From assembly GCA_965242555.1 (NCBI GenBank), contig CBDESO010000012.1, positions 330,803 through 394,802 of the forward strand: DNA of 64,000 nucleotides, given 5' to 3'. This document shows, in pieces, positions 10,849-43,565 of this stretch (its first letter is position 1; each line of letters starts with the position of its first letter). The notes beneath the pieces are model-generated. The model did no database searches. It worked only from the letters and a program-made list of their open reading frames with translations, and had not been told where the DNA came from. This DNA is from Dehalococcoidia bacterium (lineage in GTDB: Bacteria > Chloroflexota > Dehalococcoidia > Lucifugimonadales > JADFKI01). Both the position numbers and the translations under genes were made by a program.

Positions 10849-12347
<1,499 letters not shown>

Positions 12348-21005: not shown

Positions 21006-21043
21006 CCAAAAGTTTTTTGCTTACTTTTTTACAAAAAAGTAAG
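21006..21043 (+). repeat. AT-rich dyad element, copy 1 (CCAAAAGTTTTTTGCTTACTTTTTTACAAAAAAGTAAG)
   Basis: Member of a four-copy family. An 11-bp inverted repeat, CTTACTTTTTT/AAAAAAGTAAG, carries a compensatory extra T:A pair relative to the other copies. Confidence 0.85.
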
Positions 21044-21132
21044 ACCCCCACGCTTTCCTCTACCTACCTCCTTTTCGTCTGGTATAATCTAATCCAATCC
21101 CATAATCCCAAACAAAGAAAGGCGCATCCCCC

Positions 21133-21978
21133 ATGACAACCCAACAATACCCCAACCCCGACATCCTAGCCCAAACCGACTGGCTCGCCGAGCGCATCAA
21201 CGACCCCAACATCCGCATCGTGGACTGCGACCCCATAGACGCCTACGCCCGCGCCCACATCCCCGGCGCAGTCGGCATCCCCGTCCACCACTACATCAAG
21301 CAAGACGGCTACGACCGCGACCCGCGCGCCAACCCCCTAGTCGCGCCGCCCGCCCAAATGAAAACCCTTATGGAAAGCATGGGCATCGGCGACGACAACC
21401 TAGTCATCGCATACGACAGCAACGGCGCGCTATGGTCAACCCGTTTTTGGTGGGTCCTAAACTACTACGGCCACACCAACGTCAAAGTCCTAAACGGCGG
21501 CTGGAAAAAATGGCACTCCGAAGGCCGCCCCACATCCATAACCGCGCCCGCGCCCGCGCCCGCAACATTCACCCCCGCCGCCCAAGACAACCTAGTCTGC
21601 TCCCTTGACTACGGCGTCGCCAACGTCGGCAACGACGACGTCCTATTCCTAGACGTCCGCTCCGACGGCGAATGGGACGGCAGCAACGCCCGCGGCAACG
21701 CCCGCGCCGGACGCATCCCCGGCGCCGTCCACCTAGAATGGCTAAACTTCATCACCGACGACATCCACCAAACCATCAAGCCCGCAACCGAACTGCGCGC
21801 CATGCTAGACGCCGTAGGCGCCACCCCCGAAAAAGAAATCATCACCTATTGACAGGGCGGCATCCGTGCGGCGCACGGAGTATTCGTCCTCAACCTGCTC
21901 GGCTACGCCCGCGCCCGCAACTACGACGGCTCAATGGGCGAATGGGCAAACCGCCAAGACACCCCCCTAACAACCTAG
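21133..21978 (+). CDS. Two-domain rhodanese (thiosulfate/3-mercaptopyruvate sulfurtransferase) with an in-frame UGA at the active-site Cys position; candidate selenoprotein, otherwise a pseudogene
   Basis: ORF 21133..21852 ends ..EKEIITY-TGA. The same frame continues QGGIRAAHGVFVLNLLGYARARNYDGSMGEWANRQDTPLTT to TAG at 21976. Together this reads as the rhodanese active-site loop xxYCQxGxRAxH..NYDGSxxEW, with TGA where Cys belongs. An extended -10 (TGgTATAAT) lies at 21080..21088. Confidence 0.6.
21863..21879 (+). promoter_or_regulatory. SECIS-like hairpin 11 nt downstream of the in-frame UGA
   Basis: tccgtgc-ggc-gcacgga forms a perfect 7-bp stem with a G-rich apex. The stem codons (cgT gcG gcG) break the otherwise near-uniform C/A third-position usage of this gene. 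Confidence 0.45.
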
Positions 21979-22056
21979 CCCAATGCCACCCTGACGGCGC
22001 GGCAAGCCAACCCGCGCTCCGCGCCGTCCCCAATCCCAACGGCATCTGAAACGCAT

Positions 22057-24273
22057 ATGAAACAACTCGCCCGCCTCGCGCGCCGCGCAACCCGCCTGCC
22101 CACAACCGCGCCCCTAATCTGCGCCGCCCTATGCCTCGCCCTAACCGCCGCCTGCGCCCAACAACCTCCGCCCGCTCGCCCGCCCGCGCCCTTGCCTACA
22201 TACTCGCCCCCAATCCACTCGCTCGCGACGGTGCCTATGCCCGCTCAGCCCGCCCAGCCCGCCACGCCCCTCCCTGCGCCCCCGTCGCAGCCCGCGCCGC
22301 TCCCCGTGACTGCCACGCCCACGCCATTCCCGCCCTCAACCGATCCCCCCGCCGACGTCGCCTTCACCCAAATAAGCGCCGGCAAAAGCCACGCCTGCGG
22401 CCTGCTTGAAAACGGCGCTATCGCCTGCTGGGGGCACGACTACTTCGGACACGACAACCTAGACGCCCCCGCCGGAACCGGCTTCCGCCAAATAGCCGCC
22501 GGACGGGACTTCGCCTGCGCCCTGCGCCAAGACGCCACAATCGCCTGCTGGGGAGATAATTCGGAGCGCCAAACCTCCCCCCCGCAAGGCGCCTTCGCCG
22601 AAATAGCCGCAGGCACAGCCCACGCCTGCGCCATCCCCGCATCCCAAACCGCGCCGCCCGCGCTCGTATGCTGGGGAAGATCATTCCCAAACGGCGCTAC
22701 AACCCTGCCGCTGGACGCCCCCCTCTCCAAGATTCAGGCAAGCGCCCAACTCACCTGCGGCCTAACCCCCCAAGCCGACCTGGCTTGCGTATCATTAGAG
22801 CGCCGACTGGCTGAAATCACCCCCGGCCCCTTCAGCGGATTCGGCGTAGGCTTGCATCACGTCTGCGCCCTCCGCCAAGACGGCGCCGCCCATTGCCAAG
22901 GCCTAAACGACTCCCTCCAAGCCAACCCGCCGCCCACCAAATTCGCCCAAATCGCCGGCGGCTGGTACCACACCTGCGCCCTGACCCTCGCCCGCCGGAT
23001 AGAATGTTGGGGCAGCGACATCCCCGCAGCTCCCGGCGAGCGCCTAACCGCCCCCGACGGCGAATTCGCCGCAATCTCAATCGGCTGGCGCAACTCATGC
23101 GCCCTACGCCCCGACCGCCGCGCCCTCTGCTGGCGCGCGCCCGACCACATCGACTACCAACTGCCCGTCGGAATCACAGAGGCATTCGGCGGCGCAAAAT
23201 TCCAATCCCCCGTAGAGATATTCCCTTGGCCAAGCGGCGGCTTAGCAATCGCCGACCGCAGCGGCGTCATAACACTCCGCCATGACCGGCCCGACGCGCC
23301 GCCGCCCAAAACCATCCTGGACATCTCCGACTCCGTCCTATGCTGCCCCGGCGAAATCGGCTTGTACACCGCCGCGCTAGACCCGCAATTTGACGAATTC
23401 CCCTTTCTCTACCTATGGTATGGCGCGATAGCCGACCACGCCTCAGGCGAAGAAACGCCCGGCGTCATAGGCCGCCTATCGCGCTACCGCGTCAACAACG
23501 GCGTCGCCCTCAAAGACTCCGCCCTAACCATCCTGGAAGTCATCCAGCCCGGCATAGCCCGGCTGGGCAGCGCCCTCCGTTTCGGCCCCGACGGCATGCT
23601 CTACCTCAGCCTAGGCGTCGGCGACGGCAGCGCCTCCGCCAACGCCCAATCCCTCGCCGAGCTGCGCGGCAAAATCATCCGCATAGACATCCGCGGCGCA
23701 ACCCCCGCCCAACCCTACCGCATCCCCCCAGACAACCCATTCGCGCGCGCACCAGACGCCCGCCCCGAAATATGGGCATACGGCCTCAGAAGCCCTTGGC
23801 GAATGGACTTCGACCCCGCAAACCCCAACCGCATATTCGTCGCCGACGTAGGCGAAAGCGCCCGCGAGGAAGTATCCATAGCCACCCCCGGCGCCAACCT
23901 AGGCTGGCCCCTCTGCGAGGCAGACCTCTGCCAAGAAACCCTAGCCCCCGCCCTAGCCGCCACCTTAACGCCGCCCGTCGTCGCCTACGGCAGAGACCAA
24001 GGCTGCGCCGTCATAGGCGGCATCGCCGTCCCCTGGCTTGACAACCAATTCATCTTCGGCGACTTCTGCTCCCGCCGCCTCTGGCTCCTAGAACAAGACG
24101 CCCCTCCCGACGACGAACCCGACAGCCCACCCACCTGGCGCATGCGCCAAATAGCCGACCTATTCGCCCCCGTGCGTTTCCTATACTCATTCGGCTTGGC
24201 AACCGACGGCAGCGTCTATGTCCTAGCCCGCGAAAGCCCAATACTCCGCCTACACCCCGCCCTAGTCAAATAG
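22057..24273 (+). CDS. RCC1-like propeller + PQQ-dependent sugar dehydrogenase lipoprotein, paralogue 3
   Basis: MKQLARLARRATRLPTTAPLICAALCLALTAAC lipobox and the same motif set (RFGPDGMLYLSLG, RIPPDNPF, EIWAYGLRSPWRMDFD, GANLGWP). It starts 78 nt after the rhodanese stop with no obvious promoter. Confidence 0.85.
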   Translation: MKQLARLARRATRLPTTAPLICAALCLALTAACAQQPPPARPPAPLPTYSPPIHSLATVPMPAQPAQPATPLPAPPSQPAPLPVTATPTPFPPSTDPPADVAFTQISAGKSHACGLLENGAIACWGHDYFGHDNLDAPAGTGFRQIAAGRDFACALRQDATIACWGDNSERQTSPPQGAFAEIAAGTAHACAIPASQTAPPALVCWGRSFPNGATTLPLDAPLSKIQASAQLTCGLTPQADLACVSLERRLAEITPGPFSGFGVGLHHVCALRQDGAAHCQGLNDSLQANPPPTKFAQIAGGWYHTCALTLARRIECWGSDIPAAPGERLTAPDGEFAAISIGWRNSCALRPDRRALCWRAPDHIDYQLPVGITEAFGGAKFQSPVEIFPWPSGGLAIADRSGVITLRHDRPDAPPPKTILDISDSVLCCPGEIGLYTAALDPQFDEFPFLYLWYGAIADHASGEETPGVIGRLSRYRVNNGVALKDSALTILEVIQPGIARLGSALRFGPDGMLYLSLGVGDGSASANAQSLAELRGKIIRIDIRGATPAQPYRIPPDNPFARAPDARPEIWAYGLRSPWRMDFDPANPNRIFVADVGESAREEVSIATPGANLGWPLCEADLCQETLAPALAATLTPPVVAYGRDQGCAVIGGIAVPWLDNQFIFGDFCSRRLWLLEQDAPPDDEPDSPPTWRMRQIADLFAPVRFLYSFGLATDGSVYVLARESPILRLHPALVK

Positions 24274-24416
24274 CCGAATATAAGGAAAGCCCAGCACGGA
24301 TATGCTCGATATGTTGCCCCACGTAGCCGTTGGATGATGCGCGCTAAGCAAAAGCGCGGGCATCCCCATCCCATCCCAAACCCGCCCACTAGACTTGAGA
24401 CGCTTGCCCCTTCCCC

Positions 24417-25578
24417 CTACAACCCCTCCACAACCGCCGCCAGCGAATCCCCCAACTCCGCCCGCTGCCACCGCCGCACCCCATCCCCCGCCAGCTCCGA
24501 CCGCAACTCGCGCGGCCGCAGCGCCAGCCGCTCCAAACTCGCCGCCGGCCACACCAAACCCGCGTGCAGCCCCAACCGCTTAGCGCAACCCAACCGCCAA
24601 TCCTTCAGCGACTTCAACCGCTCCCTAGCCAAACCGCGCTCCCCGGCCCCAAGCCGCGCCCGCTTAACCTCGCCCGCCGACTCGTCGCCTGTATTGCGCG
24701 GCGGCCGCTTAACCGGCGCCCCCGCCAGCCCCTGCCGCACCGCCCTTCGGACGCCCGCGCCCTCTCTGCCGCGCCCATACCGGCCTATCCCCTTCACCCG
24801 CGCCACATCCGCGCGCGGATTAGCCGCCAGCGCCAGCATCGCCGCGTCCGAAAACACCTTAAACGGCGGACGATCCCGCCGCAAAGCCTCCCGCTCGCGG
24901 AACAAATACAGCGCCCGCAAAACCGCCAACCCCTTCCCATCCAACCCCCGACTGCCCTTCACATCCAAAAACCCCGTCTCAGCGTCCTGCTGTGTATGCC
25001 GCGCATTGGCAAGCCGCTCGCACTCCTCCGCAACCCACTCGCGCCTTCCCAACGCCTCCAACCGATCCCGCAAAAGCCCTGCCAATCGCTCCAAATGCGC
25101 CACATCCTCCGCCGCATACGCCACCATCGCGCGGCTCAGCGGCCGGATAGTCCAATCCGCCCGCTGCAGCTGCTTAGACTTGCTAACCTCAACGCCGAGA
25201 TACTCCTTCAGCGCCGCCGCCAGCCCCAGCCGCTCGCTGCCCGCAAACGCCGCCGCTATCCCCGTATCAAACAGCGGCTTGATATGAAACCCCCAATCCC
25301 GCCGCAAACTGCGAACATCATAATCCGCCGCGTGAAAAATCTTCAGCACCGACGGCGCCGCCAGCAACTCCCCCAGCGCCCCCACATCCTCCACCGCCAG
25401 CGGATCTACCAAAAACACCCCATCCGCCGTCGCCAGCTGCACCAAGCACACCCGCTCCGGATACCGATAAAACCCGTTAGACTCGATATCCACCGCCACC
25501 GCCGATTGAGCCAAAGCCGCCGCCGCGACCGCCTCCAACCGGGCTGCCGTCGTAACAATCTCAGGAATGGCGCAATCG
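24417..25578 (-). CDS. rnd: Ribonuclease D (DEDD 3'-5' exonuclease + HRDC)
   Basis: AVDIESNGFYRYPERVCLVQLA, LKIFHAADYDVRSLRRDWG, YAAEDVAHL and an HRDC-like tail. The 5' end is uncertain. The track ORF runs through tRNA-Asn, and no ATG/GTG/TTG lies between the tRNA and the first conserved motif; ATT at 25578 after GAGG is one candidate. Confidence 0.75.
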
Positions 25579-25669
25579 CCTCGCGCGGAAACTATGCGTA
25601 GCGTCCTTATGGGATAACTGGGGGGATAATCGGGGAATACACCGAGATACGCTTGATATGCGAGCGCCT

Positions 25670-25744
25670 TGGCTCCGCAGGTAGGATTCGAACCTACGGC
25701 CAATCGGTTAACAGCCGATTGCTCTACCACTGAGCTACTGCGGA
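25670..25744 (-). tRNA. tRNA-Asn (anticodon GUU), CCA encoded
   Basis: The reverse complement reads TCCGCAGTAGCTCAGTGGTAGAGCAATCGGCTGTTAACCGATTGGCCGTAGGTTCGAATCCTACCTGCGGAGCCA. It has a canonical cloverleaf, and the anticodon loop is CTGTTAA. Confidence 0.92.
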
Positions 25745-25880
25745 GCGCCAAAACCGCCCACAACCATAATAGCGCCGCCCGCCCCACAGGTCAACGATAT
25801 TTCCCCCCGTCCAAAATTCACCCTTGACACCGCCTTAAAACCCACACTATTCTTAACAGAACATATTACTAAACACCCAC

Positions 25881-25915
25881 CCAAAAGTTTTTGCTACTTT
25901 TTTCTAAAAAAGTAG
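25881..25915 (+). repeat. AT-rich dyad element, copy 2 (CCAAAAGTTTTTGCTACTTTTTTCTAAAAAAGTAG)
   Basis: Same family, preceded by cacccaCC as in copy 3. It lies between the MFS stop and the tRNA-Asn 5' end. Confidence 0.85.
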
Positions 25916-25941
25916 AGCGGCCCCCCATTCACAAACGGCAT

Positions 25942-27207
25942 CTAGTCCCCCACCGGCGCCCTCCGACCCCGCGCGCCACCTCTCGCATTCCCCGCCACAA
26001 ACCCCACCACCCCCGCCAGCGCCCCGATCCCCGTCATCCCGAACACATTCGCCACCCCAAACGGCGTAGCCAGCGGCCCCACCACAAACGACCCCGCGCT
26101 GCCCCCGATGTCCCACGCCTGCTGCAGCGTAGCCATCCCCGCGCTCCGCTCCCGCGGCGGCACCCGATCCACCGTGAACGCCTGTATCCCCGGCTGCAGC
26201 AGCCCAAACCCTAGCCCCGCGAAAAACCCCGCGCTCAGAAACATCGCCTGAAAAAACGCCCCATTCAGCACAAACATCGCCGTCGCCACCGACAACAGCC
26301 CCGGCACTATCACCGTCGGCCGGCCCAGCCTATCCGCTATCGGCCCCGCCGCCGCCATCGCCCCCATCGACGTCAGCGAAAACACCGTGTAAAACAGCCC
26401 CGGATTCCCCAAATTCCCCTGCGACGCCAACAGCGGCAAAAATGTATTTATCGGCGCCGTCGTGAATGTATATGTCAAAAACACCAGCGTCGGAAATATC
26501 GCCGCCCTAGACACCAGCGGCGGCTTATCCCCAGAACCCGCGCTCGCCGCGGGCCCCGGCTGCGCCGCCTGCTCAAACCCTATCCGCCGCGCCGAAATCC
26601 GCGCCGCGAACAACGTCCCCAGCAGCGCCGCCGCCGCCGAAAACACGAATGCGTACGTAAACCCATACGAATTCTCCCCCACATAAGTCAGTATGTAAGA
26701 CGCCACAAACGGCGAATACAAAAACGACGCGTTTATCGCATTCCCCATATACGCCATCGCCTCCGCCCGCCTATTCGCCGGCGCCAAATTCGCCACTATC
26801 GTTGACGTCGCCACCGGCCCCAGCGCCAAGCCTACACCCTGAAACATCCGCATCGGCACCAACCACCACGGCCCCAGCGCGAATATGTACGCCACGCTCC
26901 CCAGCGCCACTATCGCCGTCCCAGCCACCGCTACCCGCTTTGGCCCAAATGCGTAGATCCACTGCCCCCCAACAGGCCTTATCAGCAGCCCCACAATCCC
27001 AAACGCGCCCACGATAATCCCGATATGCCAAGTCGTCCCATGCAAATGCAGCACATACGGCGGTATCACCGTCAGCATCGCCGTGTAACCCGCGAACATA
27101 AAATGCGCCGTCAGCAGATTCAACACAAAATCCGCCGTCCAAAGCCTATTCCCCTGCCCCGTATCTGCCTGTCCAACCTGTCGCGCCATCAAACCGCCGC
27201 CTGCCAT
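25942..27207 (-). CDS. MFS transporter
   Basis: 421 aa with about 12 predicted hydrophobic helices and the loop motif GPIADRLGRP between TM2 and TM3 of the second half. Confidence 0.8.
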   Translation of the reverse strand: MAGGGLMARQVGQADTGQGNRLWTADFVLNLLTAHFMFAGYTAMLTVIPPYVLHLHGTTWHIGIIVGAFGIVGLLIRPVGGQWIYAFGPKRVAVAGTAIVALGSVAYIFALGPWWLVPMRMFQGVGLALGPVATSTIVANLAPANRRAEAMAYMGNAINASFLYSPFVASYILTYVGENSYGFTYAFVFSAAAALLGTLFAARISARRIGFEQAAQPGPAASAGSGDKPPLVSRAAIFPTLVFLTYTFTTAPINTFLPLLASQGNLGNPGLFYTVFSLTSMGAMAAAGPIADRLGRPTVIVPGLLSVATAMFVLNGAFFQAMFLSAGFFAGLGFGLLQPGIQAFTVDRVPPRERSAGMATLQQAWDIGGSAGSFVVGPLATPFGVANVFGMTGIGALAGVVGFVAGNARGGARGRRAPVGD

Positions 27208-27437
27208 AATATCCCGCCATTTCGGTTAGCGAACTTTAGCACATTCCACCCCGCAAGGGTTAGCGCCAATTCCCCCTTATTGCCGAGATGCCGCGCTATC
27301 CCCCGTTATCCCACAGCCCATTTGCGCCCTAACCCATTTGCGTTTATACTCACGCCATACCGCGCCCGCGCCCTTGCGCTCTCGCGCCCTGCGCCGCGCG
27401 CATACACACATTCACACAAACGGGAGGAGGCAGCCCA

Positions 27438-28109
27438 ATGAACCTACTGGTAATCTCAGGCGGCAGACACCCCTACGAAGAATCCACCCCCATCCTAGAG
27501 CGGTTCCTATCCGACGCCGGCCACTCAGTCAAAGTCACCGAAGACCCCGCCATCCTAGCCGACCCCGACGCGATGAGCGCCTACCACGCCCTCGTCTTCA
27601 ACACTATGCGCGCCGGCGACAACGGCATGACCCGCCAACAGCAAGACGGCATGACCCAATACATCCAATCCGGCAAAGGCTTCGTCTGCATCCACATCGC
27701 CGGCTGCGCCTCCGAAGACTGGCCCGAATACTACGACATCACCGGCGGCGGCTGGGTCTCAGGCATTAGCTACCACCCCCCCTACGGCAACTTCCAAGTC
27801 AACATATCCGACCCCAACAGCCCCGGCGCCGCCGGCATATCCGACTTCGCCACCAACGACGAACTCTATATGGGCATTGAATACCGCGGCGGCAACGACG
27901 TATTCCTAACCGGCGACGCCCAAGACGGAACATACATGTGGGGCGGCAAAGAAACCTTCATGCCCGGCGGCACATTCCCACTAGGCTGGACTCGCTCCTA
28001 CGGCGCGGGCAAAGTCTTCGTTACCCTGCTAGGCCACAACGGCCTCAGCTTCCAAACCCCCGAATTCCAACGCATCGTCCTAAACGGCATCGACTGGACA
28101 ACCGCCTAA
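27438..28109 (+). CDS. ThuA-domain (trehalose-utilisation-like) protein
   Basis: RBS GGGAGGAGG. The pattern ..YHALVFNTM..GKGFVCIHIAG..PLGWTRSYGAGKVFVTLLGHN.. matches ThuA-like class-I glutamine-amidotransferase-fold proteins. Confidence 0.75.
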   Translation: MNLLVISGGRHPYEESTPILERFLSDAGHSVKVTEDPAILADPDAMSAYHALVFNTMRAGDNGMTRQQQDGMTQYIQSGKGFVCIHIAGCASEDWPEYYDITGGGWVSGISYHPPYGNFQVNISDPNSPGAAGISDFATNDELYMGIEYRGGNDVFLTGDAQDGTYMWGGKETFMPGGTFPLGWTRSYGAGKVFVTLLGHNGLSFQTPEFQRIVLNGIDWTTA

Positions 28110-28178
28110 ACCCCAATCCCTACATCATCAACCCCTAATTCCCAACCCACAGCGCGCGCACACTCGGAGGTCACGCAT

Positions 28179-28931
28179 ATGCGACTGCAAGGCAAAGTAG
28201 CCATCATCAGCGGCGGCGCTCGCGGACAGGGCGCCGCCGAGGCAAAAATGTTCGCCCGCGAGGGCGCAAAAGTCGTCTTCGGCGACATCCTAGACGAAGA
28301 CGGCAAAAAGATAGAGGCCGAAATCAACGAAACCGGCGGCGACGCCCTCTACCTCAACCTAGACGTCGCCAGCGAAACCGCATGGCAAAGCGCCGTGGAA
28401 ACCGCCGTCGCCCGCTACGGCAAAGTGGACATCCTAGTCAACAACGCCGGCATAGCCGTATGGTCAGCCGGCGACGACGCCACCGTCGAAGACTGGGACC
28501 GCCTTATGGACATCAACGCCAAGGGCGTATTCCTCGGCACAAAAGCCGTCATCCCCGAAATGCGTAAAGCCGGCGGCGGCTCAATCATCAACATCTCATC
28601 CATATCCGGCATCATCGGCCAAACCACCATCCACCCCGGCTACAACGCATCCAAAGGCGCTGTCCGCATCCTAACCAAATCCACCGCCATCCAATACGCC
28701 AAAGAGGGCATCCGCGCCAACTCAGTCCACCCAGGCCCAGTCATGACCGAAATGACCGCCCACGGCTGGCGCAACCCCCAAAACCGCGCCCTCACCGAAC
28801 AACGCACGCCCCTAGGCAGATACGCCGACCCCGACGAAATCGCCAGCGGCGTCCTATTCCTAGCCTCCGACGAATCCTCCTACATCACCGGCAGCGAACT
28901 CGTCATAGACGGCGGCGTAACCGCCCAATAA
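28179..28931 (+). CDS. SDR-family oxidoreductase (classical short-chain dehydrogenase)
   Basis: TGGARGQG cofactor motif, NNAG, catalytic S...YNASK and PGPVMT. Confidence 0.9.
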   Translation: MRLQGKVAIISGGARGQGAAEAKMFAREGAKVVFGDILDEDGKKIEAEINETGGDALYLNLDVASETAWQSAVETAVARYGKVDILVNNAGIAVWSAGDDATVEDWDRLMDINAKGVFLGTKAVIPEMRKAGGGSIINISSISGIIGQTTIHPGYNASKGAVRILTKSTAIQYAKEGIRANSVHPGPVMTEMTAHGWRNPQNRALTEQRTPLGRYADPDEIASGVLFLASDESSYITGSELVIDGGVTAQ

Positions 28932-29093
28932 CCAACCACCAGCCAACGGCCACAACGAAAATCGGAAAACCAAAACGGGAGGCGAGCCAACGGCGCTACC
29001 GCCGCAAACCCCGCCTCCCGCATCACACGCGAAAAGAATAACCACGAACCAGATGGGATTAGCCCGACTGATGTGGCTAGTTGATACGCCTAA

Positions 29094-29246
29094 TTGATAC
29101 GCCCACAAGACGCGCCCCAGCGCTCCAAGAAGATGATCGGCCGGATTGATGCGCCCACAAGACGCGCGCCAATAACGCCAAGAAGACGATCGGCTGGATT
29201 GATGCGCCCACAAGACGCGCCCAACACGCCAAGAACCCGTCGGCTG
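29094..29246. repeat. Tandem repeat, about 52-53 bp x 3
   Basis: ttgat(a/g)cgcccacaagacgcgc...gccaagaaga(t/c)gatcggc(c/t)gga starts at 29094, 29146 and 29199. It lies between the convergent SDR and CBS genes. Confidence 0.8.
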
Positions 29247-29249
29247 CGC

Positions 29250-29675
29250 CTACGCCGCCGCCAGATCCAAATCATCATCCATAATCAGCGTCGGCTCCCC
29301 ATCCTGCTCTATCGCCCGCGACAAATCCTCCGCGAACAGCAGCCCCGCCACACGCCCCTCGCCATCCACCACCGGCATATGCCCCACCTCGGCATCCATC
29401 ATCGCCAGCAGCGCCTCACCCGCGCCCGTATGCAGGCCCGCCGTCTCGCTCAACAGCGTCATATGCCGATACACATGGCACTGCCACGAAATATGCCCGT
29501 CTATCAGACACCCCAGCGCCATATCGCGCTCCGTGATAATCCCAACCGGCGCGCCGCCCTCCGTAACCACAAGACACCCCGTATTCCTATCCCGCATCAA
29601 CGCCGCCGCGTCGGCCACCGTGGTATCTATATCAACCACCGTAACATCATTGCTCATCAAATCCGCCGCGTTCAT
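29250..29675 (-). CDS. CBS-domain pair protein
   Basis: ATG at 29675 follows AGGGG. It contains two CBS repeats (..DVTVVDIDTTVADAAALMRDRNTGCLVVTEGGAPVGIITERD.. and ..ALLAMMDAEVGHMPVVDGEGRVAGLLFAEDL..). Confidence 0.8.
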   Translation of the reverse strand: MNAADLMSNDVTVVDIDTTVADAAALMRDRNTGCLVVTEGGAPVGIITERDMALGCLIDGHISWQCHVYRHMTLLSETAGLHTGAGEALLAMMDAEVGHMPVVDGEGRVAGLLFAEDLSRAIEQDGEPTLIMDDDLDLAAA

Positions 29676-29753
29676 AATCGCCCCTTTCGCCTTGACCTCG
29701 CGCCCTGTCCCGCCTGACCCTGCGCCCCGTCTATACATAACATACCACTACAT

Positions 29754-29769
29754 TGTGAACCCCATCACA
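29754..29769. promoter_or_regulatory. Perfect CRP/FNR-type palindrome TGTGA-N6-TCACA
   Basis: TGTGAaccccaTCACA lies about 80 bp upstream of the CBS gene start, in the divergent CBS/pyrG intergenic region. Confidence 0.3.
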
Positions 29770-29947
29770 ATCATTGCCCAATGTTTAGTATTGCCTCCAC
29801 GAATACTGATGTCCCGCCTATCGCCGCCCTGCGCCCCCTGCCAACGCCCCGCCAACGCAAGATCGGCGGCATACGATTGGCGCGCGATTGCCCCAAACCA
29901 TTCCCGCAAACGCCCAATGCGCCCAACACAACGCTTGAATTGTGATT

Positions 29948-29997
29948 GAAATTGTGATTGACTTGCCCCGCCATTATGCGGTAATCTTGTTCGCATA
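29948..29997 (+). promoter_or_regulatory. Exact tandem 12-mer (AATTGTGATTGA x2) overlapping a TTGACT-18-TAATCT promoter upstream of pyrG
   Basis: 12-mers at 29948..29959 and 29960..29971. TTGACT at 29968..29973 and TAATCT at 29992..29997. The pyrG ATG is at 30057. Confidence 0.4.
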
Positions 29998-33768: not shown

Positions 33769-33785
33769 CCCCGCCAAGCCCACAC

Positions 33786-36626: not shown

Positions 36627-36778
36627 CACGTGGGGAATTATACCAATCTCAGCGCAACGGCGGGCAACGTTCCAATTCAAGCGGCTTAATACGCCTAATC
36701 TCTACAGCCGTTTGGACAGCATTCCCACCCCCACCCTAACCCGCCGGCAACAACCCGCCAACAGCGACAAGCGGCAAC

Positions 36779-37405
36779 CTAACCCACCCTCAACCCCACC
36801 ACCTGCATATCCCGCGGCAAACTCGTAGCCGTCACACTCAACCGCCCCTGCCCCTCCCCCGCATCCCCAACCCCCAACTCCCGCAACAACCGCGCCAGCG
36901 GCAACAACCCGCTACCATCATCAGCCCCCTCCACCGCATACCGCACCGGCACAACAATCCGCGGACCAACCTGATTCACCACCTGCGCCGCCAACTCCAC
37001 CGCCAACCTATCCCCCCCCGCCTCCACCACCACCACATCCGGCTGCCCAATCTCCTGCGCCTGACGCGGCGTCAGCGCCCCCCCAATCGCCCCCAAATGA
37101 CACACGCTCACACCCTCAGCCCGCAAAGTGAACGCCGTATTCACCCGCCGCTCCTCGCCATCGCCCGCTCGCCCGGCCGTAGCCGTCCCCACCACATAAA
37201 AATCCCCTATCTCATACTCCCCAGGCCCACGCAAAACCCGCGCCCCCTCAGCCACAACCACGCGCCCAACATCCCCCCCGCTCAGCGTCACAATATCCGC
37301 CCCCTCATACACGCCCGCGCTCCCTCCGCCATCCGCATCCATCACCACCACCGCATCCCCCGACCGCACCCGCACAGCCGACCCGCCCAGCCAAACTATA
37401 TCCAT
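36779..37405 (-). CDS. Beta-lactamase-fold (Lactamase_B_3-like) protein with no evident HxHxDH motif
   Basis: MDIVWLGGSAVRVRSGDAVVVMD.. resembles UPF0173-type MBL-fold proteins. The position that normally carries SHxHxDH reads TLSGGDVG. Confidence 0.5.
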   Translation of the reverse strand: MDIVWLGGSAVRVRSGDAVVVMDADGGGSAGVYEGADIVTLSGGDVGRVVVAEGARVLRGPGEYEIGDFYVVGTATAGRAGDGEERRVNTAFTLRAEGVSVCHLGAIGGALTPRQAQEIGQPDVVVVEAGGDRLAVELAAQVVNQVGPRIVVPVRYAVEGADDGSGLLPLARLLRELGVGDAGEGQGRLSVTATSLPRDMQVVGLRVG

Positions 37406-37546
37406 ATCGCCCCATCCTTTCGCTTGCAACTCGCCGCCAACGCCGCGCCCTTAATAATACAACGCCCCTACCGCCGCAAGTAACCCTAATTGAACCCAAG
37501 CAGCCCCTATCGCTGCGAACCACCACGCCCAAAACCACGCCCGCCT

Positions 37547-37574
37547 TTGACAAATCCCCAATCACGAGTATAAT
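37547..37574 (+). promoter_or_regulatory. Promoter TTGACA-16-TATAAT
   Basis: Consensus hexamers lie about 50 nt upstream of the hydroxy-acid oxidase start. Confidence 0.55.
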
Positions 37575-37624
37575 TCGCGCGGGTAAAACCCCATACCAAC
37601 ACCTAGCCGGGAGGGATGTCGCAC

Positions 37625-38719
37625 ATGGAACCCATCAACCTATTTGACATGGAGGCCCTCGCAGCCCAGCGCCTGCCACACAACATGTGGACATTCGTTG
37701 ACGCCGCCTCCAACGACGAAATCACCAAGCGCAGAAACCGCGCCTCATTCGAGCGCATCCTAGTCAACGCCCGATTCCTAACCGACGTCTCCGACCGAGA
37801 CCTCTCCACCACCGTCCTCGGCGAAAACATCAGCTTCCCCGTAATGATCGCCCCCACCGGCGGCCAGCGCCAAGCGCACCCCGACGGCGAGCGCGCCACC
37901 GCCACCGGCGCCGGCAAAGTCGGCACCCTATACACGCTACCCACCAGCAGCGGCTACTCCATCGAAGAAGTCGCCCAAGTCGCCACCGGCCCCCTATGGT
38001 TCCAACTCTACCACTTCGACGACGAAGTAACCGAAATCCTAGTCAAACGCGCCAAAACCGCCGGCTACAAAGCCATCTGCCTCACCATAGACACCCCCGT
38101 AGGCAGCCCCAAAGAACGCGACCTACGCAACAACTACCAAGCGCTCCCCGGCCTCCACTGGGGCAGCATGCGCGACCGCCCCGACCTAGTCCAGCGCCGC
38201 GGCGTCGGCGTCCCCGACCTAACCGACTGGGACCCGCCCGGCTACGTAGGCCTAACCTGGGACAGACTAGACTGGCTGCGAAACCTCACCGGCCTACCCC
38301 TCATCGTCAAAGGCGTCCGCACCATCGAAGACGCCCTCCAATGCGCCGAATACGGCGTCGACGGCATCGTCGTATCCAACCACGGCGGCCGCCAACTCGA
38401 CGGCACCCCATCCAGCATAGAAACCCTAGGCCCCATAGCAAACGCCGTAGGCGACCGCCTAGAAATCTACCTAGACTCCGGCGTCCGCCGCGGCCTAGAC
38501 GTCCTCAAAGCCCTATGCCTAGGCGCCCGCGCCGTCCTCGTAGGCCGCCCACTCTACTGGGGCCTAGCCTACAACGGCGCCGCCGGCGTCGAACACATGC
38601 TCACCATCCTAAAAGTCGAATTCGACCGCGCCCTAGCCTACGTAGGCTGCCGAACCCCCGCCGACCTCCACCGCGGCATCATAGACCTCCCCGACACCAA
38701 CTGGTGGCCCCGCAACTAA
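37625..38719 (+). CDS. FMN-dependent alpha-hydroxy-acid oxidase/dehydrogenase (glycolate oxidase/L-lactate dehydrogenase family)
   Basis: ..PVMIAPTG.., LTIDTPVGSPKERD, VSNHGGRQLDG, DSGVRRGLDVLKAL and GRP. ATG at 37625 is 9 nt after GGAGGG, whereas ATG at 37616 abuts the RBS. Confidence 0.9.
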   Translation: MEPINLFDMEALAAQRLPHNMWTFVDAASNDEITKRRNRASFERILVNARFLTDVSDRDLSTTVLGENISFPVMIAPTGGQRQAHPDGERATATGAGKVGTLYTLPTSSGYSIEEVAQVATGPLWFQLYHFDDEVTEILVKRAKTAGYKAICLTIDTPVGSPKERDLRNNYQALPGLHWGSMRDRPDLVQRRGVGVPDLTDWDPPGYVGLTWDRLDWLRNLTGLPLIVKGVRTIEDALQCAEYGVDGIVVSNHGGRQLDGTPSSIETLGPIANAVGDRLEIYLDSGVRRGLDVLKALCLGARAVLVGRPLYWGLAYNGAAGVEHMLTILKVEFDRALAYVGCRTPADLHRGIIDLPDTNWWPRN

Positions 38720-38781
38720 CCCCCACGCAAAGCCCCCGCCCGCGCAACCACGCAGGCGGGGGCAACCGCGCATCATCAGCG

Positions 38782-40443
38782 TCAGCGCGCCACCTCCATC
38801 TCAAGCGTGAAATCCCCACCGCTTTCAGCGCTATAAGTTGACGCCTCTATCGTATATGCCCCCGCCTGCAACACAGCGCTTATCGTAACCGAATCTGCGT
38901 CAGCAACGCCCTTTTCCCGCCTAACCGCGCCCCCCGTTCCCTCCCCCTCCAGCAAGAATACATAAGGCGTCGCATCGGCGGAGGCCAGCGTGATAGTCAC
39001 CTCGGACGCCGCGTACAGCGTGAATGTATAAAACCGCGCATAGTAAATCCGATTATCAGGCGAATTCGCAGTAAGGCAACCAGCCGCCCACCTGCCCCTA
39101 ACGCTGCCGCTACCCCCAAGCCGCTCGATGCAAGCGGTGGATGCCCCCGCCACGCTTGTAGGCGTAGCCGATGGCGTTGCGGTAGGCGTAGGCGTGGGGG
39201 TTGCCGAGCTTGCCCCGGAACCACCCTCAATTTGCGCCACCTTTGTGGCTAGAACCGCAACCTGGTTTTTGAGATCCGCCAGCTCCGCAACCTGCCCTTC
39301 AAGCGCAATCAGCCTGTCCATAACCTCGTCGGATGCCACCAAAGTCGCAGTTGGCGTTAGCGTGGCAACGGGAGTTACGGACGTGCCCGGCACGGATGTA
39401 GCAGTTGGCGTTGCAGTTGCGCCCTGCGTGGATGTAGCGGTGGGCGTTGGCGTTGCAGAAGTTGTCGTGCCGCAAATTGGCAACCCAATCTCTTGTATCT
39501 CCTGAGTGCTCAGAGGAACGCGCAGAGATCGGGGAATACAACCCGTCAGTCGATTGTCGCGAAGACGCAACTTTATAAGACGGGGTAGATTGCCCAACTC
39601 AGCGGGTATCGCGCCAGTCAGTTGATTGCTGTGAAGATGCACTTCCCTGACATTGGCAAGATTGCCCAACTCCACGGGTATCTCACCAGTCAGTTGATTA
39701 CCAGGGAGCCACACTTCCCTGATTTTGGCAAGATTGCCCAACTCAGCGGGTATTGCGCCAGTCAGTCGATTGTTGTCGAGACCCAAATCATAGAGATTGG
39801 CAAGATTGCCTAACTCAGCAGGTATCGCGCCAGTCAGTCGATTGCCGCCAAGATACAACTGCGCGAGATAGGTAAGGTTGCCCAACTCAGCGGGTATTGC
39901 GCCCGTCAATTGATTGTGGAAGAGCCTCAAAGACCATAGATTGGCAAGATTGCCCAACTCAGCGGGTATTGCGCCCGTCAGTTGATTATCGCTGAGATCC
40001 AAATCCGTGATATTGGCAAGGTTGCCCAACTCTGAGGGTATCCTGCCATTCAAGAGATGGTTGCTCAACTCCAACTTTGATACGCGATTCTTTGCTATCG
40101 TTACGCCGCGCCAACCGCTAATACGAACATCCGCTGACCAGTTTAGATAGCCCTCTGTACCTTCAAGCGTGTTCTTTGCAGCGAGTAGCGCGGCGCAGTC
40201 TGATACAAGGCCGACGTTGTTCGCAGGATCATGCACGGCTGTGCCGTTGGAGCATTGGGCGGTGTATTGGGCGGGTATGGTTATGGTGCGCGCGGCGGTG
40301 TTAGAACCACCCGCGTTAAATGCGGTTGCCCCGCCCCCACCACTCATCAGCAGCGATACCGCCACCACCGCCATCACCACAACCAGCGCCAGCCCGATCG
40401 CAATCCTAATTGCCCGCTTAGACACAGATGGCTTAATGTTCAT
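38782..40443 (-). CDS. Membrane-anchored leucine-rich-repeat protein (plant-type 24-residue LRRs) with a coiled coil and a C-terminal PPC-like domain
   Basis: N-terminal anchor IRIAIGLALVVVMAVVAVSLLM and about 9 repeats of LxxNQLTGAIPAELGNLANLxxL. T/P-rich linkers flank a heptad segment. The tail YYARFYTFTL..AGAYTIEASTY..GDFTLEMEV resembles a pre-peptidase C-terminal domain. Confidence 0.8.
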   Translation of the reverse strand: MNIKPSVSKRAIRIAIGLALVVVMAVVAVSLLMSGGGGATAFNAGGSNTAARTITIPAQYTAQCSNGTAVHDPANNVGLVSDCAALLAAKNTLEGTEGYLNWSADVRISGWRGVTIAKNRVSKLELSNHLLNGRIPSELGNLANITDLDLSDNQLTGAIPAELGNLANLWSLRLFHNQLTGAIPAELGNLTYLAQLYLGGNRLTGAIPAELGNLANLYDLGLDNNRLTGAIPAELGNLAKIREVWLPGNQLTGEIPVELGNLANVREVHLHSNQLTGAIPAELGNLPRLIKLRLRDNRLTGCIPRSLRVPLSTQEIQEIGLPICGTTTSATPTPTATSTQGATATPTATSVPGTSVTPVATLTPTATLVASDEVMDRLIALEGQVAELADLKNQVAVLATKVAQIEGGSGASSATPTPTPTATPSATPTSVAGASTACIERLGGSGSVRGRWAAGCLTANSPDNRIYYARFYTFTLYAASEVTITLASADATPYVFLLEGEGTGGAVRREKGVADADSVTISAVLQAGAYTIEASTYSAESGGDFTLEMEVAR

Positions 40444-40662
40444 TCGTTGACTCCCCCGCGCCTGTTTGCTTTATTGGCTTGCCTAACACCCTACACTACC
40501 ACAATCGCATAGTTTGCCGCAGTTCAAAACAGCCCCGCATAACGGAAACACCCTTTTCCCCGCCCGCTTATTTGCGCGAGCGGGGGCATCTAGCGGCAGA
40601 TTTCGCTGCATGGTCATCTAGCGGCAGGTGTCGCGGCTGAGACTACGGCTTTCACCCCCCCC

Positions 40663-41904
40663 TCACAATATCGCCCCCGCCTCCTGAAACCTCCCCACAT
40701 CTTCCCACCCATATCCCAACTCCTCTATCAACACCGCCTCCGTATCCTCACCCAACTCCGGCGCCCCACGAACCACCCCCGCCGGCGTCTCGCTGAACCT
40801 CACCGGAAAATTGCACACCCGAATCGCCCCCAAATCCGGATGCTCAAACCCCGTGATATACTCATTCGCTATCACCTGCGGATCATCCTTCAAATCCTCC
40901 ACCGCCTGCACCTTCGCGTAAATAAACCCATACTCCCGGAACACCCCATCCCACTCCTCATACGTCCGCTCCGCGAACCTCTCCTCTATCAACCCCAGCA
41001 GCTCCGGCACCACCTCAGCCCCCTCCTCTACCCCCTGAAACCGCTCATCATCCAAAACCCACCCAATCCCCAGCGCCTCCGCGAACCGCCGCCAGTACCG
41101 CTTCGGCTGCGGATTGGATATTCGCAGCCAACTCCCGTCCTTGCAGCGATATATGTTATACATATAATTGCGGACGCTATCCCGGTTAAGCGCCGGCATA
41201 TGGCTGCCGATAAGCAAATCCATACCCACCGCCAACCCCTGCAGCCACATCGTGCTGCTCATATGCGACACCTCCACCTTCTGCCCGACCCCCTGACTCT
41301 GCCGCGCCAACAGCGCCGACAAAATCCCCAAACACAGCACAATCCCCCCAATCTGATCCGACGGCGCTCCCCGCACCGAAACCGGATGCTTCGCCCAATC
41401 CGGCGTCGCCGACATCATCAGCCCCGCCCTAGCCTGCCCGCACGCGTCCAAAGACGGCATCTCAGCGTCCGGCCCCAGCGTCCCGAACCCCGACGCCGAC
41501 CCATACACCAGCATCGGATTTATCCCCCGCAGCGTCTCATAATCCATCCCAAGGCGCTCCGCCACCCCATTGCGGAAATTCTCAATGAACACATCCGCCC
41601 CCGCCACTAGCCTATGCACGATCTCGCGCCCCTCCGCCGTCTTCAGATTCACCGCAATCCCCCGCTTGCTCCGATTGCAAGTCTCAAAATAAGCGTTCCT
41701 CCCATTCGGCATCCCCGCCTGCGCCGACTCCATTGACGACACCGCCCGTCCCACATCCCCATCCAGCGCCTCAATCTTAATCACATCCGCCCCCATATCC
41801 CCCAGCATAGACGCCGCCACCGGCCCAAACTGCCACATCGTCCAATCCAAAACCCGCACCCCCGCCAAAGCCCCGCGCCCCTGCCTGCCATTCACGCCGT
41901 TCAT
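40663..41904 (-). CDS. CaiB/BaiF family III CoA-transferase
   Basis: ATG at 41904 follows GGAGGGA. LAGVRVLDWTMWQFGPVAASMLGDMGADVIKIE is the family N-terminal signature. Confidence 0.85.
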   Translation of the reverse strand: MNGVNGRQGRGALAGVRVLDWTMWQFGPVAASMLGDMGADVIKIEALDGDVGRAVSSMESAQAGMPNGRNAYFETCNRSKRGIAVNLKTAEGREIVHRLVAGADVFIENFRNGVAERLGMDYETLRGINPMLVYGSASGFGTLGPDAEMPSLDACGQARAGLMMSATPDWAKHPVSVRGAPSDQIGGIVLCLGILSALLARQSQGVGQKVEVSHMSSTMWLQGLAVGMDLLIGSHMPALNRDSVRNYMYNIYRCKDGSWLRISNPQPKRYWRRFAEALGIGWVLDDERFQGVEEGAEVVPELLGLIEERFAERTYEEWDGVFREYGFIYAKVQAVEDLKDDPQVIANEYITGFEHPDLGAIRVCNFPVRFSETPAGVVRGAPELGEDTEAVLIEELGYGWEDVGRFQEAGAIL

Positions 41905-42075
41905 AACTCCCTCCCTTGCTTTCGCTAATGCCTTATTCGCCTGCCGCAAGCATACCGCATCCAACCCCATTGTCAACGCCCCCCAAACGGAAAATCCCCC
42001 AATTTCAAATTCCCTCTTGACACCCGCCCATCTACCCATTATTCTTAATACGAACAAATATACCGACATACCCAC

Positions 42076-42111
42076 CCAAAAGTTTTTTGCTACTTTTTTC
42101 TAAAAAAGTAG
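42076..42111 (+). repeat. AT-rich dyad element, copy 3 (CCAAAAGTTTTTTGCTACTTTTTTCTAAAAAAGTAG)
   Basis: Same family. It ends 35 nt upstream of the ATG at 42146, and read as TTGCTA-16-TAGGGT it could itself be a promoter. Confidence 0.85.
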
Positions 42112-42145
42112 GGTCCCCCGGCGGGGAGGCTTGGAGGCAACAAAC

Positions 42146-43501
42146 ATGACAACCGCAACCCGCGAACCCATAACACGCGAACAGGCGCTATCCGAGCAAG
42201 AACTCGTGCGCCTCAAAATCGCCCGCCGCGTCAACCAACGCACCAACGACTGCGACGAACTCATAGACTTCATGCTAGACACCGTCCGCGGCGAATACCC
42301 CGACGCCAAGCACCACCACCGCCAAAACGCCGCCCGCGACCTAGCCATTATGGGCGGCAGCCTCCCACAAGACACTCCGGGATCAGCCGCCCGCGTCGTC
42401 CGCGAAGAAGACATGCCCAAACCCAAAACCCCCAAAGTAACACTCAAGCAAATCATCAACAAGCCCATCGGCGCATACATCCGCGAAAAAACCGACGACT
42501 GCGTCGACCTGATAGACGAATACTACAACATCCTATTCCCGCGCCCCGTGTTCGAAAGCGCCAACCCCGACGAAAAAAAATACCAAAAAGCCACCCGAAT
42601 CCGGTCCCATCACAAAGTAGCCGCGCTCAGAGAAATGATGAAACGCAGCATCGGCAGCCGCAACCCCTACGCCTACCCGCAAACCTCCGCTATGGAAGAA
42701 AAAATGCTCAACAGCAAGCTGGGAACCGGAATGCGCCTAGCGATGGACAAAGGCATGGGATACGCGCGCTACATGTTCGAAATCCTGGAAAACGACAAAA
42801 CCGACCGCTACGGCAACATAATAACCGACCCCTTCACCCAGAGCCACCGCCTCATCGCCCTCAACGAACTCTGCCGCATAGGCGCCGACATCCCCTGGGA
42901 ACACATAACCCCAGAATCCATAGACGCCTTCTTCCGCGACCTCCACGCCAAAGAGCGCCGCCAGGCGGAACGCCTCCTAGCCCAGCGCCAACAATCCGCC
43001 AACGCCGACCTCACCCCAGAGCAAAAAGCCGAAGTCCTAACCGTCTTCGAAGAAATGCAACGCCAAGCCGACGCCAACGACCGCAAAGCCGCCAAAAAAG
43101 CCAAGAAAGCCGAAAAGAAAGCCGCCAAAAAAGCCAACGCCAACCCCGTCAACAACGCCGATAAAGACGCCACCAAACCCGACAACACAAACACCGACCG
43201 GAATGTCAGCCCCGACACTGACACGCCCACCCCCGTCCCCGACACCCCCACAACCCGCGGCGAAACCGCCGTCGCCAACGCCCTAGCCCGCCACCCAGAA
43301 GTCGACCTAGACACCGCCCTGGAAAACCACCACGCCACCGCCGGCATCCCCAAACAAAACCTAACCCACGAACAAATCTACGACGCCATCACAGCCGAGG
43401 CGAACTTCCAAAAACGCCAAGCCATAATCCAAAACCGCCTGCGCGCGAAAAACCCAGACGCCCCTGACGACGGCCCCGACCCCAAATCCCGCAGCCCTTA
43501 G
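42146..43501 (+). CDS. Hypothetical protein: three helical repeats, a coiled coil, a K/A-rich basic tract and a P/T/D-rich tail
   Basis: ATG at 42146 is 7 nt after GGAGG. Repeat motif ..DC.(E/D)LID(F/E).. + ..H(H/K).xAAxxL.. occurs three times. KAAKKAKKAEKKAAKKA is a histone-H1-like tract. No family recognised. Confidence 0.6.
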   Translation: MTTATREPITREQALSEQELVRLKIARRVNQRTNDCDELIDFMLDTVRGEYPDAKHHHRQNAARDLAIMGGSLPQDTPGSAARVVREEDMPKPKTPKVTLKQIINKPIGAYIREKTDDCVDLIDEYYNILFPRPVFESANPDEKKYQKATRIRSHHKVAALREMMKRSIGSRNPYAYPQTSAMEEKMLNSKLGTGMRLAMDKGMGYARYMFEILENDKTDRYGNIITDPFTQSHRLIALNELCRIGADIPWEHITPESIDAFFRDLHAKERRQAERLLAQRQQSANADLTPEQKAEVLTVFEEMQRQADANDRKAAKKAKKAEKKAAKKANANPVNNADKDATKPDNTNTDRNVSPDTDTPTPVPDTPTTRGETAVANALARHPEVDLDTALENHHATAGIPKQNLTHEQIYDAITAEANFQKRQAIIQNRLRAKNPDAPDDGPDPKSRSP

Positions 43502-43528
43502 CTCCGCAAATCCGCGGCGCAAGCCGCC

Positions 43529-43565
43529 CCCAAAAGTTTTTTGCTACCTTTTTCCAAAAAAGTAG
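43529..43565 (+). repeat. AT-rich dyad element, copy 4 (CCAAAAGTTTTTTGCTACCTTTTTCCAAAAAAGTAG)
   Basis: Same family, with one stem mismatch. It begins 28 nt after the stop of the 42146 gene. Confidence 0.85.

Follow-up and report, generated by a model that had tools for sequence, protein, structure and literature searches.

A polar hairpin repeat that follows the strand-composition mosaic of a Dehalococcoidia genome and has its core in common with palindromic units in other phyla

What are the short AT-rich palindromes that recur in a single orientation between the genes of a GC-rich Dehalococcoidia genome, and what sets this orientation? The question arises from a 64,000-nucleotide stretch of DNA (the window; contig C12, positions 330803-394802) of the genome that we refer to as G000 (3.41 Mb in 18 contigs, 61.3% GC), in which an initial annotation had placed four copies of such an element, at 21006..21043, 25881..25915, 42076..42111 and 43529..43565, all on the plus strand. 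Upon re-reading the sequence, we recovered all four at these coordinates and on this strand, with a chance expectation of 0.00: a search of the window with the 34-nt core (34-mer) and up to three mismatches returned three matches, and a search with the dyad ACTTTTTTnnAAAAAAGT and up to two mismatches returned four, compared to 0.00 in 100 dinucleotide-preserving shuffles in both cases. The element is high in copy number and patchily distributed, its stem changes are compensated, its core diverges more slowly than its surroundings, one 80-bp unit was gained or lost, and the copies are oriented along the C-rich strand. On balance, we favor the interpretation that each copy is a polar half unit belonging to a palindromic, terminator-like repeat that has spread horizontally, and that its orientation is set by the DNA strand and not by the genes.

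Using an oriented fuzzy pattern, we found ~137 copies in G000, which bears out the expectation that four copies in 64 kb would reflect an abundance like that of repetitive extragenic palindromes (REPs) or miniature inverted-repeat transposable elements (MITEs); the genome-wide tabulation proposed together with this expectation also revealed that copy orientation is not tied to gene direction. Of these 137 copies, 135 are intergenic when genes are called with a self-trained model, which yields 2,924 genes and 86% coding DNA. Roughly one third of the copies flank members of a gene family encoding a protein of 451 amino acids (the 451-aa family): 24 copies are located in the conserved 5' leader of these genes, where the ATG follows at 32-39 nt and a conserved TTGACA-17/18-TATTCT precedes the copy, and 19 are located 3' of them, 27-30 nt after the stop codon and behind a GCGGCGCAAGCCGC hairpin. 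The 94 non-family copies elsewhere carry stems of the subfamilies CTAC, GCTAC, GTTAC, CTTAC and CCTAC. Beyond the core, the subfamilies have ~10 nt on each side in common, together with a more weakly conserved C-rich left part of ~45 nt. The extent of the unit could be read from a close relative, the closed chromosome of a Dehalococcoidia metagenome-assembled genome (MAG; OZ251547.1, referred to as G012), which contains ~100 copies and the exact 34-mer. At one site, G012 and G000 differ cleanly by the presence or absence of 80 bp, which delimits a unit of ~41 nt, the 34-nt core and ~7 nt, in which the C-rich left part (the ~41 nt) is followed by AAAAGTTTTTTG, a 10-bp hairpin on C-T6 / A6-G and the final ~7 nt. 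The other 21 distinct orthologous sites that we compared were occupied in both genomes.

Several lines of evidence indicate that the dyad is constrained as a hairpin. An additional T:A pair in the first window copy, which had been taken as a compensatory change, is real and belongs to an entire CTTAC/GTAAG subfamily with 12 copies genome-wide. The stem in G000 consists of four outer pairs and C-T6/A6-G; 83 copies have C:G at outer position 4 and 33 have T:A there, and pairing at this position is Watson-Crick in 90% of cases, as opposed to 56% when the arms are shuffled. The lengths of the T and A runs also covary, with T5/A5 occurring 16 times versus ~6 expected. This covariation is much stronger across other genomes, where three outer stem positions are paired in 96-98% of copies (37-73% when shuffled) and at least six stem types occur (CTAC, GTTC, CTTC, CTGC, CGCCGC and CGCAGC), with the C:G pair adjoining the T/A runs being invariant. 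Moreover, at 22 orthologous sites in G000 and G012 the core accumulated 6.7% substitutions per site, compared to 18.7% in the adjacent 56 nt (2.8-fold slower; p ~3e-19), and its indel rate was half that of the flanks. Judged from sequence comparison, the best reading is that the copies are maintained as hairpins, even though the hairpin formed as RNA is predicted to be worth only ~-7 to -8 kcal/mol. Rfam covariance models returned only rRNA and tRNA matches in the window and nothing relevant at E <=5 around the third and fourth copies. A small reverse-strand open reading frame (ORF; MKKSSKKL...) was dismissed, given that the indels are not multiples of three (T5/A5 versus T6/A6; 2- or 3-nt loops) and that some copies run into stop codons.

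The initial annotation had raised the possibility of an orientation bias relative to genes, but what orientation follows is regional strand composition. Indeed, the top strand of the element lies on the regionally C-rich strand in 131 of 137 copies (p ~1e-31), and its flanks contain ~40% C and 15% G on the element strand out to ±150 nt. The regional GC skew of G000 ranges from -0.38 to +0.35 (25-kb windows), is equal in coding and non-coding DNA, is independent of gene direction and changes sign many times within contigs. The skew is borne by third codon positions, at which genes on the G-rich strand show G3/C3/T3/A3 frequencies of 55/21/17.5/6% and genes on the C-rich strand show C3/G3/A3/T3 frequencies of 59/16.5/18/6.4%, with a third-position GC skew (GC3 skew) of -0.56 or +0.45 and a corresponding AT3 skew of ~±0.47. 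Upon segmentation into three states, 126 copies fell into concordant skewed blocks (1.93 Mb), eight into neutral blocks (1.47 Mb) and two into discordant ones, and the density was 66 copies per Mb in skewed versus 5.4 per Mb in neutral DNA (~12-fold), whereby the blocks simplify a 10-kb skew distribution that is continuous. The window illustrates this relation: up to ~47.2 kb (window 1..47197, corresponding to C12:310-378 kb) it is a single block in which the plus strand is C-rich (mean GC skew ~-0.24), and since all four copies lie in this block, they are co-oriented. Among the loci sampled in G012, 44 of 45 copies were concordant, while the sister genomes G001 and G004 contain no element and had an absolute skew of at most 0.085 (20-kb samples). 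On the short loci examined from other phyla we observed no such polarity, though those genomes carry hundreds of copies.

Simple accounts of this relation did not hold. Local generation of the skew by the copies was rejected because the skew is flat within ±6 kb of them and does not rise or fall from one copy to the next (slope p=0.2), and because block edges show no significant asymmetry towards the downstream side (p=0.14). A two-replichore origin of the polarity was likewise rejected, as copy orientation on the closed chromosome of G012 switches at least 20 times and shows no bias at the level of replichores, and neutral blocks do not look like foreign DNA, their GC content being 61.4% compared to 61.2% in skewed blocks. 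In G000, dnaA is located ~7 kb from a C-rich-to-G-rich switch, which fits with a leading strand that is G-rich at the origin. Far from dnaA, two adjacent stretches in one 489-aa frame gave a second, weak match to the DnaA family (PF00308; G000 C8:697043-697969; G012 C1:1788745-1789671), which probably represents a DnaA-related AAA+ protein. It should be considered that an inversion flips skew and copies together, so that concordance need be set only once.

The element is not confined to this lineage. Within the Chloroflexota its distribution is narrow: only G000 and G012 carry it among the sampled genomes of the genus, and no match was found in 400 other Chloroflexota genomes (a sample covering 218 genera, including that of G000). 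The exact 34-mer is nevertheless also present in Acidiphilium rubrum ATCC 35905, Acidiphilium sp. PA, Acidocella and several Acetobacteraceae MAGs, as well as in Eubacteriales/Clostridia MAGs and an Omnitrophota MAG, such that the search of related genomes suggested by the initial annotation ended in a cross-phylum family reaching well beyond G000. With a relaxed pattern we counted 218 copies in A. rubrum, 37 in an Acetobacteraceae MAG, 34 in Acidocella, 13 in a Eubacteriales MAG (1.6 Mb) and 12 in the Omnitrophota MAG, the dominant stem differing from genome to genome. Among 201 Acetobacteraceae genomes, 49 carry the element, with 1-263 copies and near-equal counts on the two strands. The common core in these genomes is AAAAGTTTTTTG followed by a stem on T6·A6. 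Furthermore, 97 viral-contig stretches, mostly of 60-70% GC, carry the element, and related cores occur in a microvirus, in Pseudoroseomonas plasmids, in a small Mycoplasmopsis plasmid and in a plasmid of Enterococcus cecorum (7.1 kb) for which, among others, a replication initiation factor domain protein is annotated; in the plasmid and phage records, the matches fall into unannotated intergenic DNA. An identical core across phyla together with bursty copy numbers argues for horizontal spread and multiplication within genomes. In the searchable literature, queried by sequence and by topic, and in Rfam, no description of the repeat was found, and the family is apparently undescribed.

Outside the Dehalococcoidia, the element mostly takes a different form. 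There, 120 of 155 copies (77%) are arranged in inverted pairs with their arms facing inward and a modal gap of 46-48 nt, whereas no such pairs were found among 132 copies in G000 or 42 in G012. The full unit spans ~115-135 bp and comprises an AT hairpin, CAAAAAACTTTT, a host-type GC-rich hairpin, AAAAGTTTTTTG and a second AT hairpin. Such units occur in Acetobacteraceae, in some Clostridia and Omnitrophota, and on phage contigs. In several Acetobacteraceae copies, we read the central GC hairpin as close to CTGGGnCATGGGCGTT...AACGCCCATGnCCCAG, and Acetobacteraceae units are placed between convergent genes, with 3-21 nt separating their outer ends from the stop codons. A stable upstream hairpin ends at most 12 nt from the T-tract in 60 of 85 copies, and the outer hairpins, which there contain GC pairs and a T-rich tail, were called terminator-like by a terminator scanner (at an Acetobacteraceae locus). 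From its sequence, the full unit looks like an intrinsic terminator designed for both directions and backed up by further hairpins. Every copy in G000, on the other hand, is a lone half unit. Three-hairpin units that read the same from both strands are seen at L084 (an Acetobacteraceae MAG), at L030 and at many A. rubrum sites (e.g., G034:C24:10591-10703); their central GC hairpin reaches up to 25 bp (-62 kcal/mol for the region) and has its own recurring sequence within the Acetobacteraceae.

How might half units have come to follow the skew? According to the interpretation that we favor, one half of the full unit would have multiplied in this lineage, to ~137 copies, and these copies would have been inserted, or kept, strand-specifically in DNA that is subject to very different treatment on its two strands. 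The likeliest route would be a folded single-stranded intermediate that enters whichever strand is exposed in strongly skewed blocks, which would account for the fixed polarity and also for why unskewed DNA is almost free of copies. A unit in sense orientation might, in addition, disturb read-through transcription. This notion draws on a comparison with random intergenic positions in skewed blocks, length-weighted and oriented by local skew: the sole clear deviation from this null was that tandem genes on the C-rich strand had 2.5-fold fewer copies between them (nine versus 22.5 expected; chi-square p=0.01). The depletion suggests that the sense orientation is harmful to read-through transcription, and such harm would in turn account for it.

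A number of observations weigh against a mobile origin of the copies. No match to PF01797 (Y1_Tnp) was found in G000, which is 91.6% complete; Y1/HUH genes were absent from three of five other carriers (those of the paired form), and none was flanked by copies. Across the loci sampled, the ORFs enclosed by inverted copies 0.4-4 kb apart were ordinary genes or phage structural genes, with no recurring transposase, and the 451-aa protein has no nuclease or recombinase similarity. At the single 80-bp indel between G012 and G000 a target-site duplication was not readable, and as nearly all sites are common to these two genomes, there is no sign of current mobility. Strand-specific insertion is moreover deduced from polarity alone, and given the effect of inversions, concordance by itself can neither date nor explain the link between element and skew. 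Lastly, that the core is conserved could be owed to gene conversion between copies or to a host function that has nothing to do with mobility.

Could the copies then persist by function and not by mobility, as a host-maintained transcript-end signal, i.e., an RNA terminator, insulator or 3'-end stabilizer? The conservation of the core relative to its flanks would agree with this, as would 29 non-family copies in which a G-rich-strand gene has its stop codon 8-39 nt ahead of the hairpin end, the position of the next gene's promoter beyond the element in clear examples, the depletion of the sense orientation between tandem genes, and the resemblance of the full unit elsewhere to a two-way terminator that is kept even in compact phage genomes. 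Yet the stem in G000 is A:T-rich and weak (~-7 to -8 kcal/mol), is followed by a C-rich tail and has no U-tract directly after it on either strand; a copy within 90 nt of the stop codon is seen for only ~6% of genes on either strand, 31 copies lie between divergent genes, and the 98% polarity with skew would be left unexplained. We therefore consider such a host signal rather unlikely. The polarity is instead the natural starting point for another explanation, namely that the element serves in cis as the site at which some strand-specific DNA process takes place (lagging- or displaced-strand priming, fork restart or nicking, for example), and that this process also produces the block-wise skew. 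Single-strand initiation and nicking sites consist of a hairpin and a conserved single-stranded arm, a layout that the element has as well. Its agreement with the skew (131/137 copies in G000 and 44/45 in G012), its ~12-fold higher density in skewed DNA, the joint occurrence of skew and element only in the G000/G012 lineage (G001 and G004 being without both) and the related cores on a microvirus and on a plasmid that encodes a replication initiation factor domain protein all point in the same direction. However, such a site does not sit well with the missing skew gradient between copies (slope p=0.2), the lack of significant asymmetry at block edges (p=0.14), the at least 20 orientation switches of G012 without a replichore pattern, or the other-phylum genomes with hundreds of copies and no extreme skew or polarity on the loci examined, and we regard it as unlikely. 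In its strongest form, the half unit would be the start or orientation site of, or would be inserted by, the strand-specific transaction behind an asymmetry that is block-wise and of mitochondrial strength, with displaced-strand priming, nick-initiated repair synthesis and fork restart as candidates; this we hold to be decidedly improbable.

Two further explanations rest on protein recognition. The dyad symmetry, phased A/T tracts, intergenic position and conserved core are what one might expect of a regulon or architectural site bound by a dimeric regulator or a nucleoid-associated protein. The outer half-sites, though, vary in a compensated manner within and between genomes, which speaks for base pairing and not for protein contacts; the asymmetric arm confers a polarity that a symmetric dimer does not need; the flanking genes have no common function; and the distribution is patchy across phyla even though the core is identical. 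A binding site therefore seems very improbable. The initial annotation had, instead, read the element as a sigma-70 promoter of the downstream gene (TTGnnn-16/17-TAnnnN), the spacer of which would contain a palindromic operator. In favor of this idea, TTG and TA motifs are present at roughly the right spacing, the A/T-rich upstream arm resembles an UP element, three of the four window copies precede a plus-strand gene, and the organism possesses classical TTGACA/TAnnAT promoters. Nonetheless, it did not withstand the genome-wide comparison, in which gene orientation, the distances to start codons and the neighbors' own promoters all spoke against it, and we reject it as hardly tenable. Among the 94 non-family copies, the downstream gene is co-oriented for 40 and convergent for 53 (p=0.21), and no subfamily performs better, not even where the hexamers are best (TTGGTT-17-TAACAT and TTGGCT-17-TAGCAT). 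The distance between element and start codon varies from 17 to 511 nt, 16 copies are located between convergent genes, and the -10-like hexamers are poor (TAGAGC, TAAGAC and TAACAC). Neighboring genes have their own TTGACA/TAnnAT promoters between element and start codon, the conserved TTGACA-17/18-TATTCT of the 451-aa family lies upstream of the element, and the same core sits at gene 3' ends in other phyla. A role as the UP element of an adjacent core promoter was discarded as well, since reading the sequence revealed no -35 hexamer at the required distance.

Returning to half units of a spreading repeat, we looked for what could have moved them. A RAYT- or IS200-type mobilizer was rejected in view of the missing Y1_Tnp gene in G000 and the absence of flanked genes elsewhere: in Acidiphilium, the one Y1 locus has a copy on just one of its sides, and the two Omnitrophota Y1 loci have none. 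A master copy with a transposase was not found in the loci examined either. The 451-aa family, bracketed by direct copies of the element, looks like a cassette. It comprises ~25 paralogs in G000 (42-100% identity) and 32 matches in G012, and the N-terminal 300 residues vary (42-95% identity) while the promoter, the leader and the last 80 residues are near-identical; a low-complexity Lys/Ala/Asn linker is also present. Because these genes are always co-oriented with the element, they are almost always encoded on the C-rich strand. The protein had no Pfam, NCBIfam, PHROG or PDB match, and its AlphaFold model, which is all-alpha (pLDDT 72), had no significant structural neighbor. Distant relatives (25-30% identity) are multi-copy throughout the genus, and the paralogs in sister genomes have no AT-rich element nearby. 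On these grounds, namely genus-wide paralogs, absence from the loci in other phyla and no homology or fold match, the family was rejected as the mobilizer.

A comparison with known systems is instructive. REPs and bacterial interspersed mosaic elements (BIMEs), which are associated with RAYT transposases in Proteobacteria, are likewise short, extragenic, imperfect palindromes with tens to hundreds of copies, selected as hairpins, variable between lineages and often arranged as inverted pairs at gene 3' ends; in addition, the commonest stem here ends in GTAG, reminiscent of the GTAG-type head of REPs. In contrast to REPs, the stem is A/T-only instead of GC-rich, no RAYT/Y1 gene was found in G000 or in three of five carriers tested (none being flanked by copies), the 34-nt core is common across phyla whereas REPs are species-specific, and G000 contains only single, strand-locked half units. 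Nor is there an invariant GT[A/G]G head, as GTAG is part of a variable stem that reads GAAG, GAAC, GCAG or GCGC elsewhere. MITEs with transcription signals, such as the Correia elements of Neisseria and the enterobacterial ERIC sequences, resemble the full unit in being non-coding, ~100-150 bp long, high-copy, patchy and intergenic with long inverted termini, and in that they can fold in mRNA and act on transcription ends. Unlike for MITEs, however, we identified neither a target-site duplication nor, in the loci examined, a parent insertion sequence, the termini are hairpins with freely changing, compensated stems, which would be unusual for DDE-type terminal repeats, and the Dehalococcoidia copies are without one terminus. 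The IS200/IS605 family and the derived palindrome-associated transposable elements (PATEs), with hairpin ends recognized as folded single strands and strand-tied orientation, serve as a working analogy only: IS200/IS605 insertions are oriented by the replication fork, while the polarity described here is patterned by a skew-block mosaic instead of by two replichores; G000 has no Y1_Tnp gene (TnpB was not searched); and each unit contains a single hairpin and no left- and right-end pair with cleavage sites. Finally, the full unit elsewhere shares the A-tract, GC-rich hairpin, T-tract and placement 3-21 nt beyond both stop codons with bidirectional intrinsic terminators. Ordinary terminators, though, are not identical in sequence across loci and phyla, and the outer AT hairpins are an addition; the window copies, moreover, have no U-tract by the stem and no GC hairpin, except downstream of 451-aa genes.

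These comparisons bear on what the finding might mean. An identical 34-nt core is present in Chloroflexota, Alphaproteobacteria, Clostridia, Omnitrophota and phage contigs, at up to ~260 copies per genome, and the full form resembles a ready-made two-way terminator that moves between genomes; if this were true, transcription-end signals could be acquired as mobile modules. In G000, the copies provide a discrete, orientable marker with ~98% agreement with an extreme mosaic of strand asymmetry, in an element that can be cloned and assayed for folding, nicking, priming and termination. A possible causal relation between the element and the skew mosaic is the most interesting point of the finding, and if the copies do mark a strand-specific process, their orientation would map a non-canonical mode of chromosome copying or repair.

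Within the window, the copies occupy different settings. The first (21006..21043, +), with the layout CCAAAAGTTTTTTG-CTTAC-T6-AC-A6-GTAAG of the CTTAC/GTAAG subfamily, begins 20 nt after the TAA stop codon (20983-20985) of an RCC1/GSDH gene and lies 89 nt before the start of a rhodanese gene (21133-21852, +), with a TGGTATAAT extended -10 in between, at 21080-21088. The initial annotation had three of four copies upstream of plus-strand genes, which holds with the correction that the second copy (25881..25915, +) adjoins, at 27 nt, the stop codon of a minus-strand MFS transporter gene (25942-27189) and has no plus-strand gene downstream. This copy is a solo hybrid: its left flank corresponds to the 5' region of the 451-aa family, including TTGACA-18-TATTCT (25824-25853) and a GAACA-containing leader, and its right flank is similar to the 3' flank of the family, with no gene in between. 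The layout fits with a cassette gene having been lost by recombination between its two flanking copies. A second hybrid of this kind is located at C3:39173 of G000.

The other two copies flank a member of the family. The third (42076..42111, +) is part of the conserved leader of a 451-aa gene (42146..43501, +), 34 nt before its ATG at 42146; upstream of it lies a promoter-like TTGACA-17-TATTCT (42017..42045, +), a consensus of 24 copies that is conserved upstream of the element in 24 family members and probably serves as the promoter. This gene is one of the ~25 diverged paralogs (42-100% identity) that have copies of the element as direct repeats on both flanks. The fourth copy (43529..43565, +) begins 27 nt after its stop codon and ends 119 nt before the start of a rhomboid protease gene (43685, +), and a GC hairpin, GCGGC-GCAA-GCCGC (43514..43527, +), which is conserved in 3'-flank copies, separates the stop codon from it. 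In agreement with the initial annotation, the window copies are not canonical intrinsic terminators: the terminator scanner did not call them, and they combine an A:T-rich stem with a C-rich tail and no adjacent U-tract. Canonical terminators are scarce throughout G000 (1-5% of genes), and a role of the element as the organism's general terminator was rejected, since only ~6% of genes, on either strand, have their stop codon within 90 nt of a copy. The flanking genes confirmed by Pfam comprise the rhodanese, MFS transporter and rhomboid protease genes as well as the RCC1/GSDH proteins, an RNase D-like gene and a CoA-transferase gene (-).

A few promoter-like sites in the window are worth mentioning in their own right. 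The two tandem RCC1/GSDH paralogs have near-identical promoter regions (16075-16120 and 18560-18605), which read CCAAA(A)GTTGAGC-17-TATAAT or TACAAT; here, as had been noted before, the CCAAA(A)GT motif known from the arm of the element (CCAAAAGT) directly precedes TTGAGC upstream of both genes. A tRNA gene (25673-25744, -) is accompanied by a promoter-like TTGACC-17-TATTAT (25766-25794, -), which stands back-to-back with the orphan plus-strand promoter-like site of the second copy. A helpful yardstick for calling promoters in this organism is the textbook promoter of the 16S rRNA gene (10852-12351), located at 12405-12470 (-), in which an A/T-rich, UP-like stretch precedes TTGACA-17-TAAGAT.

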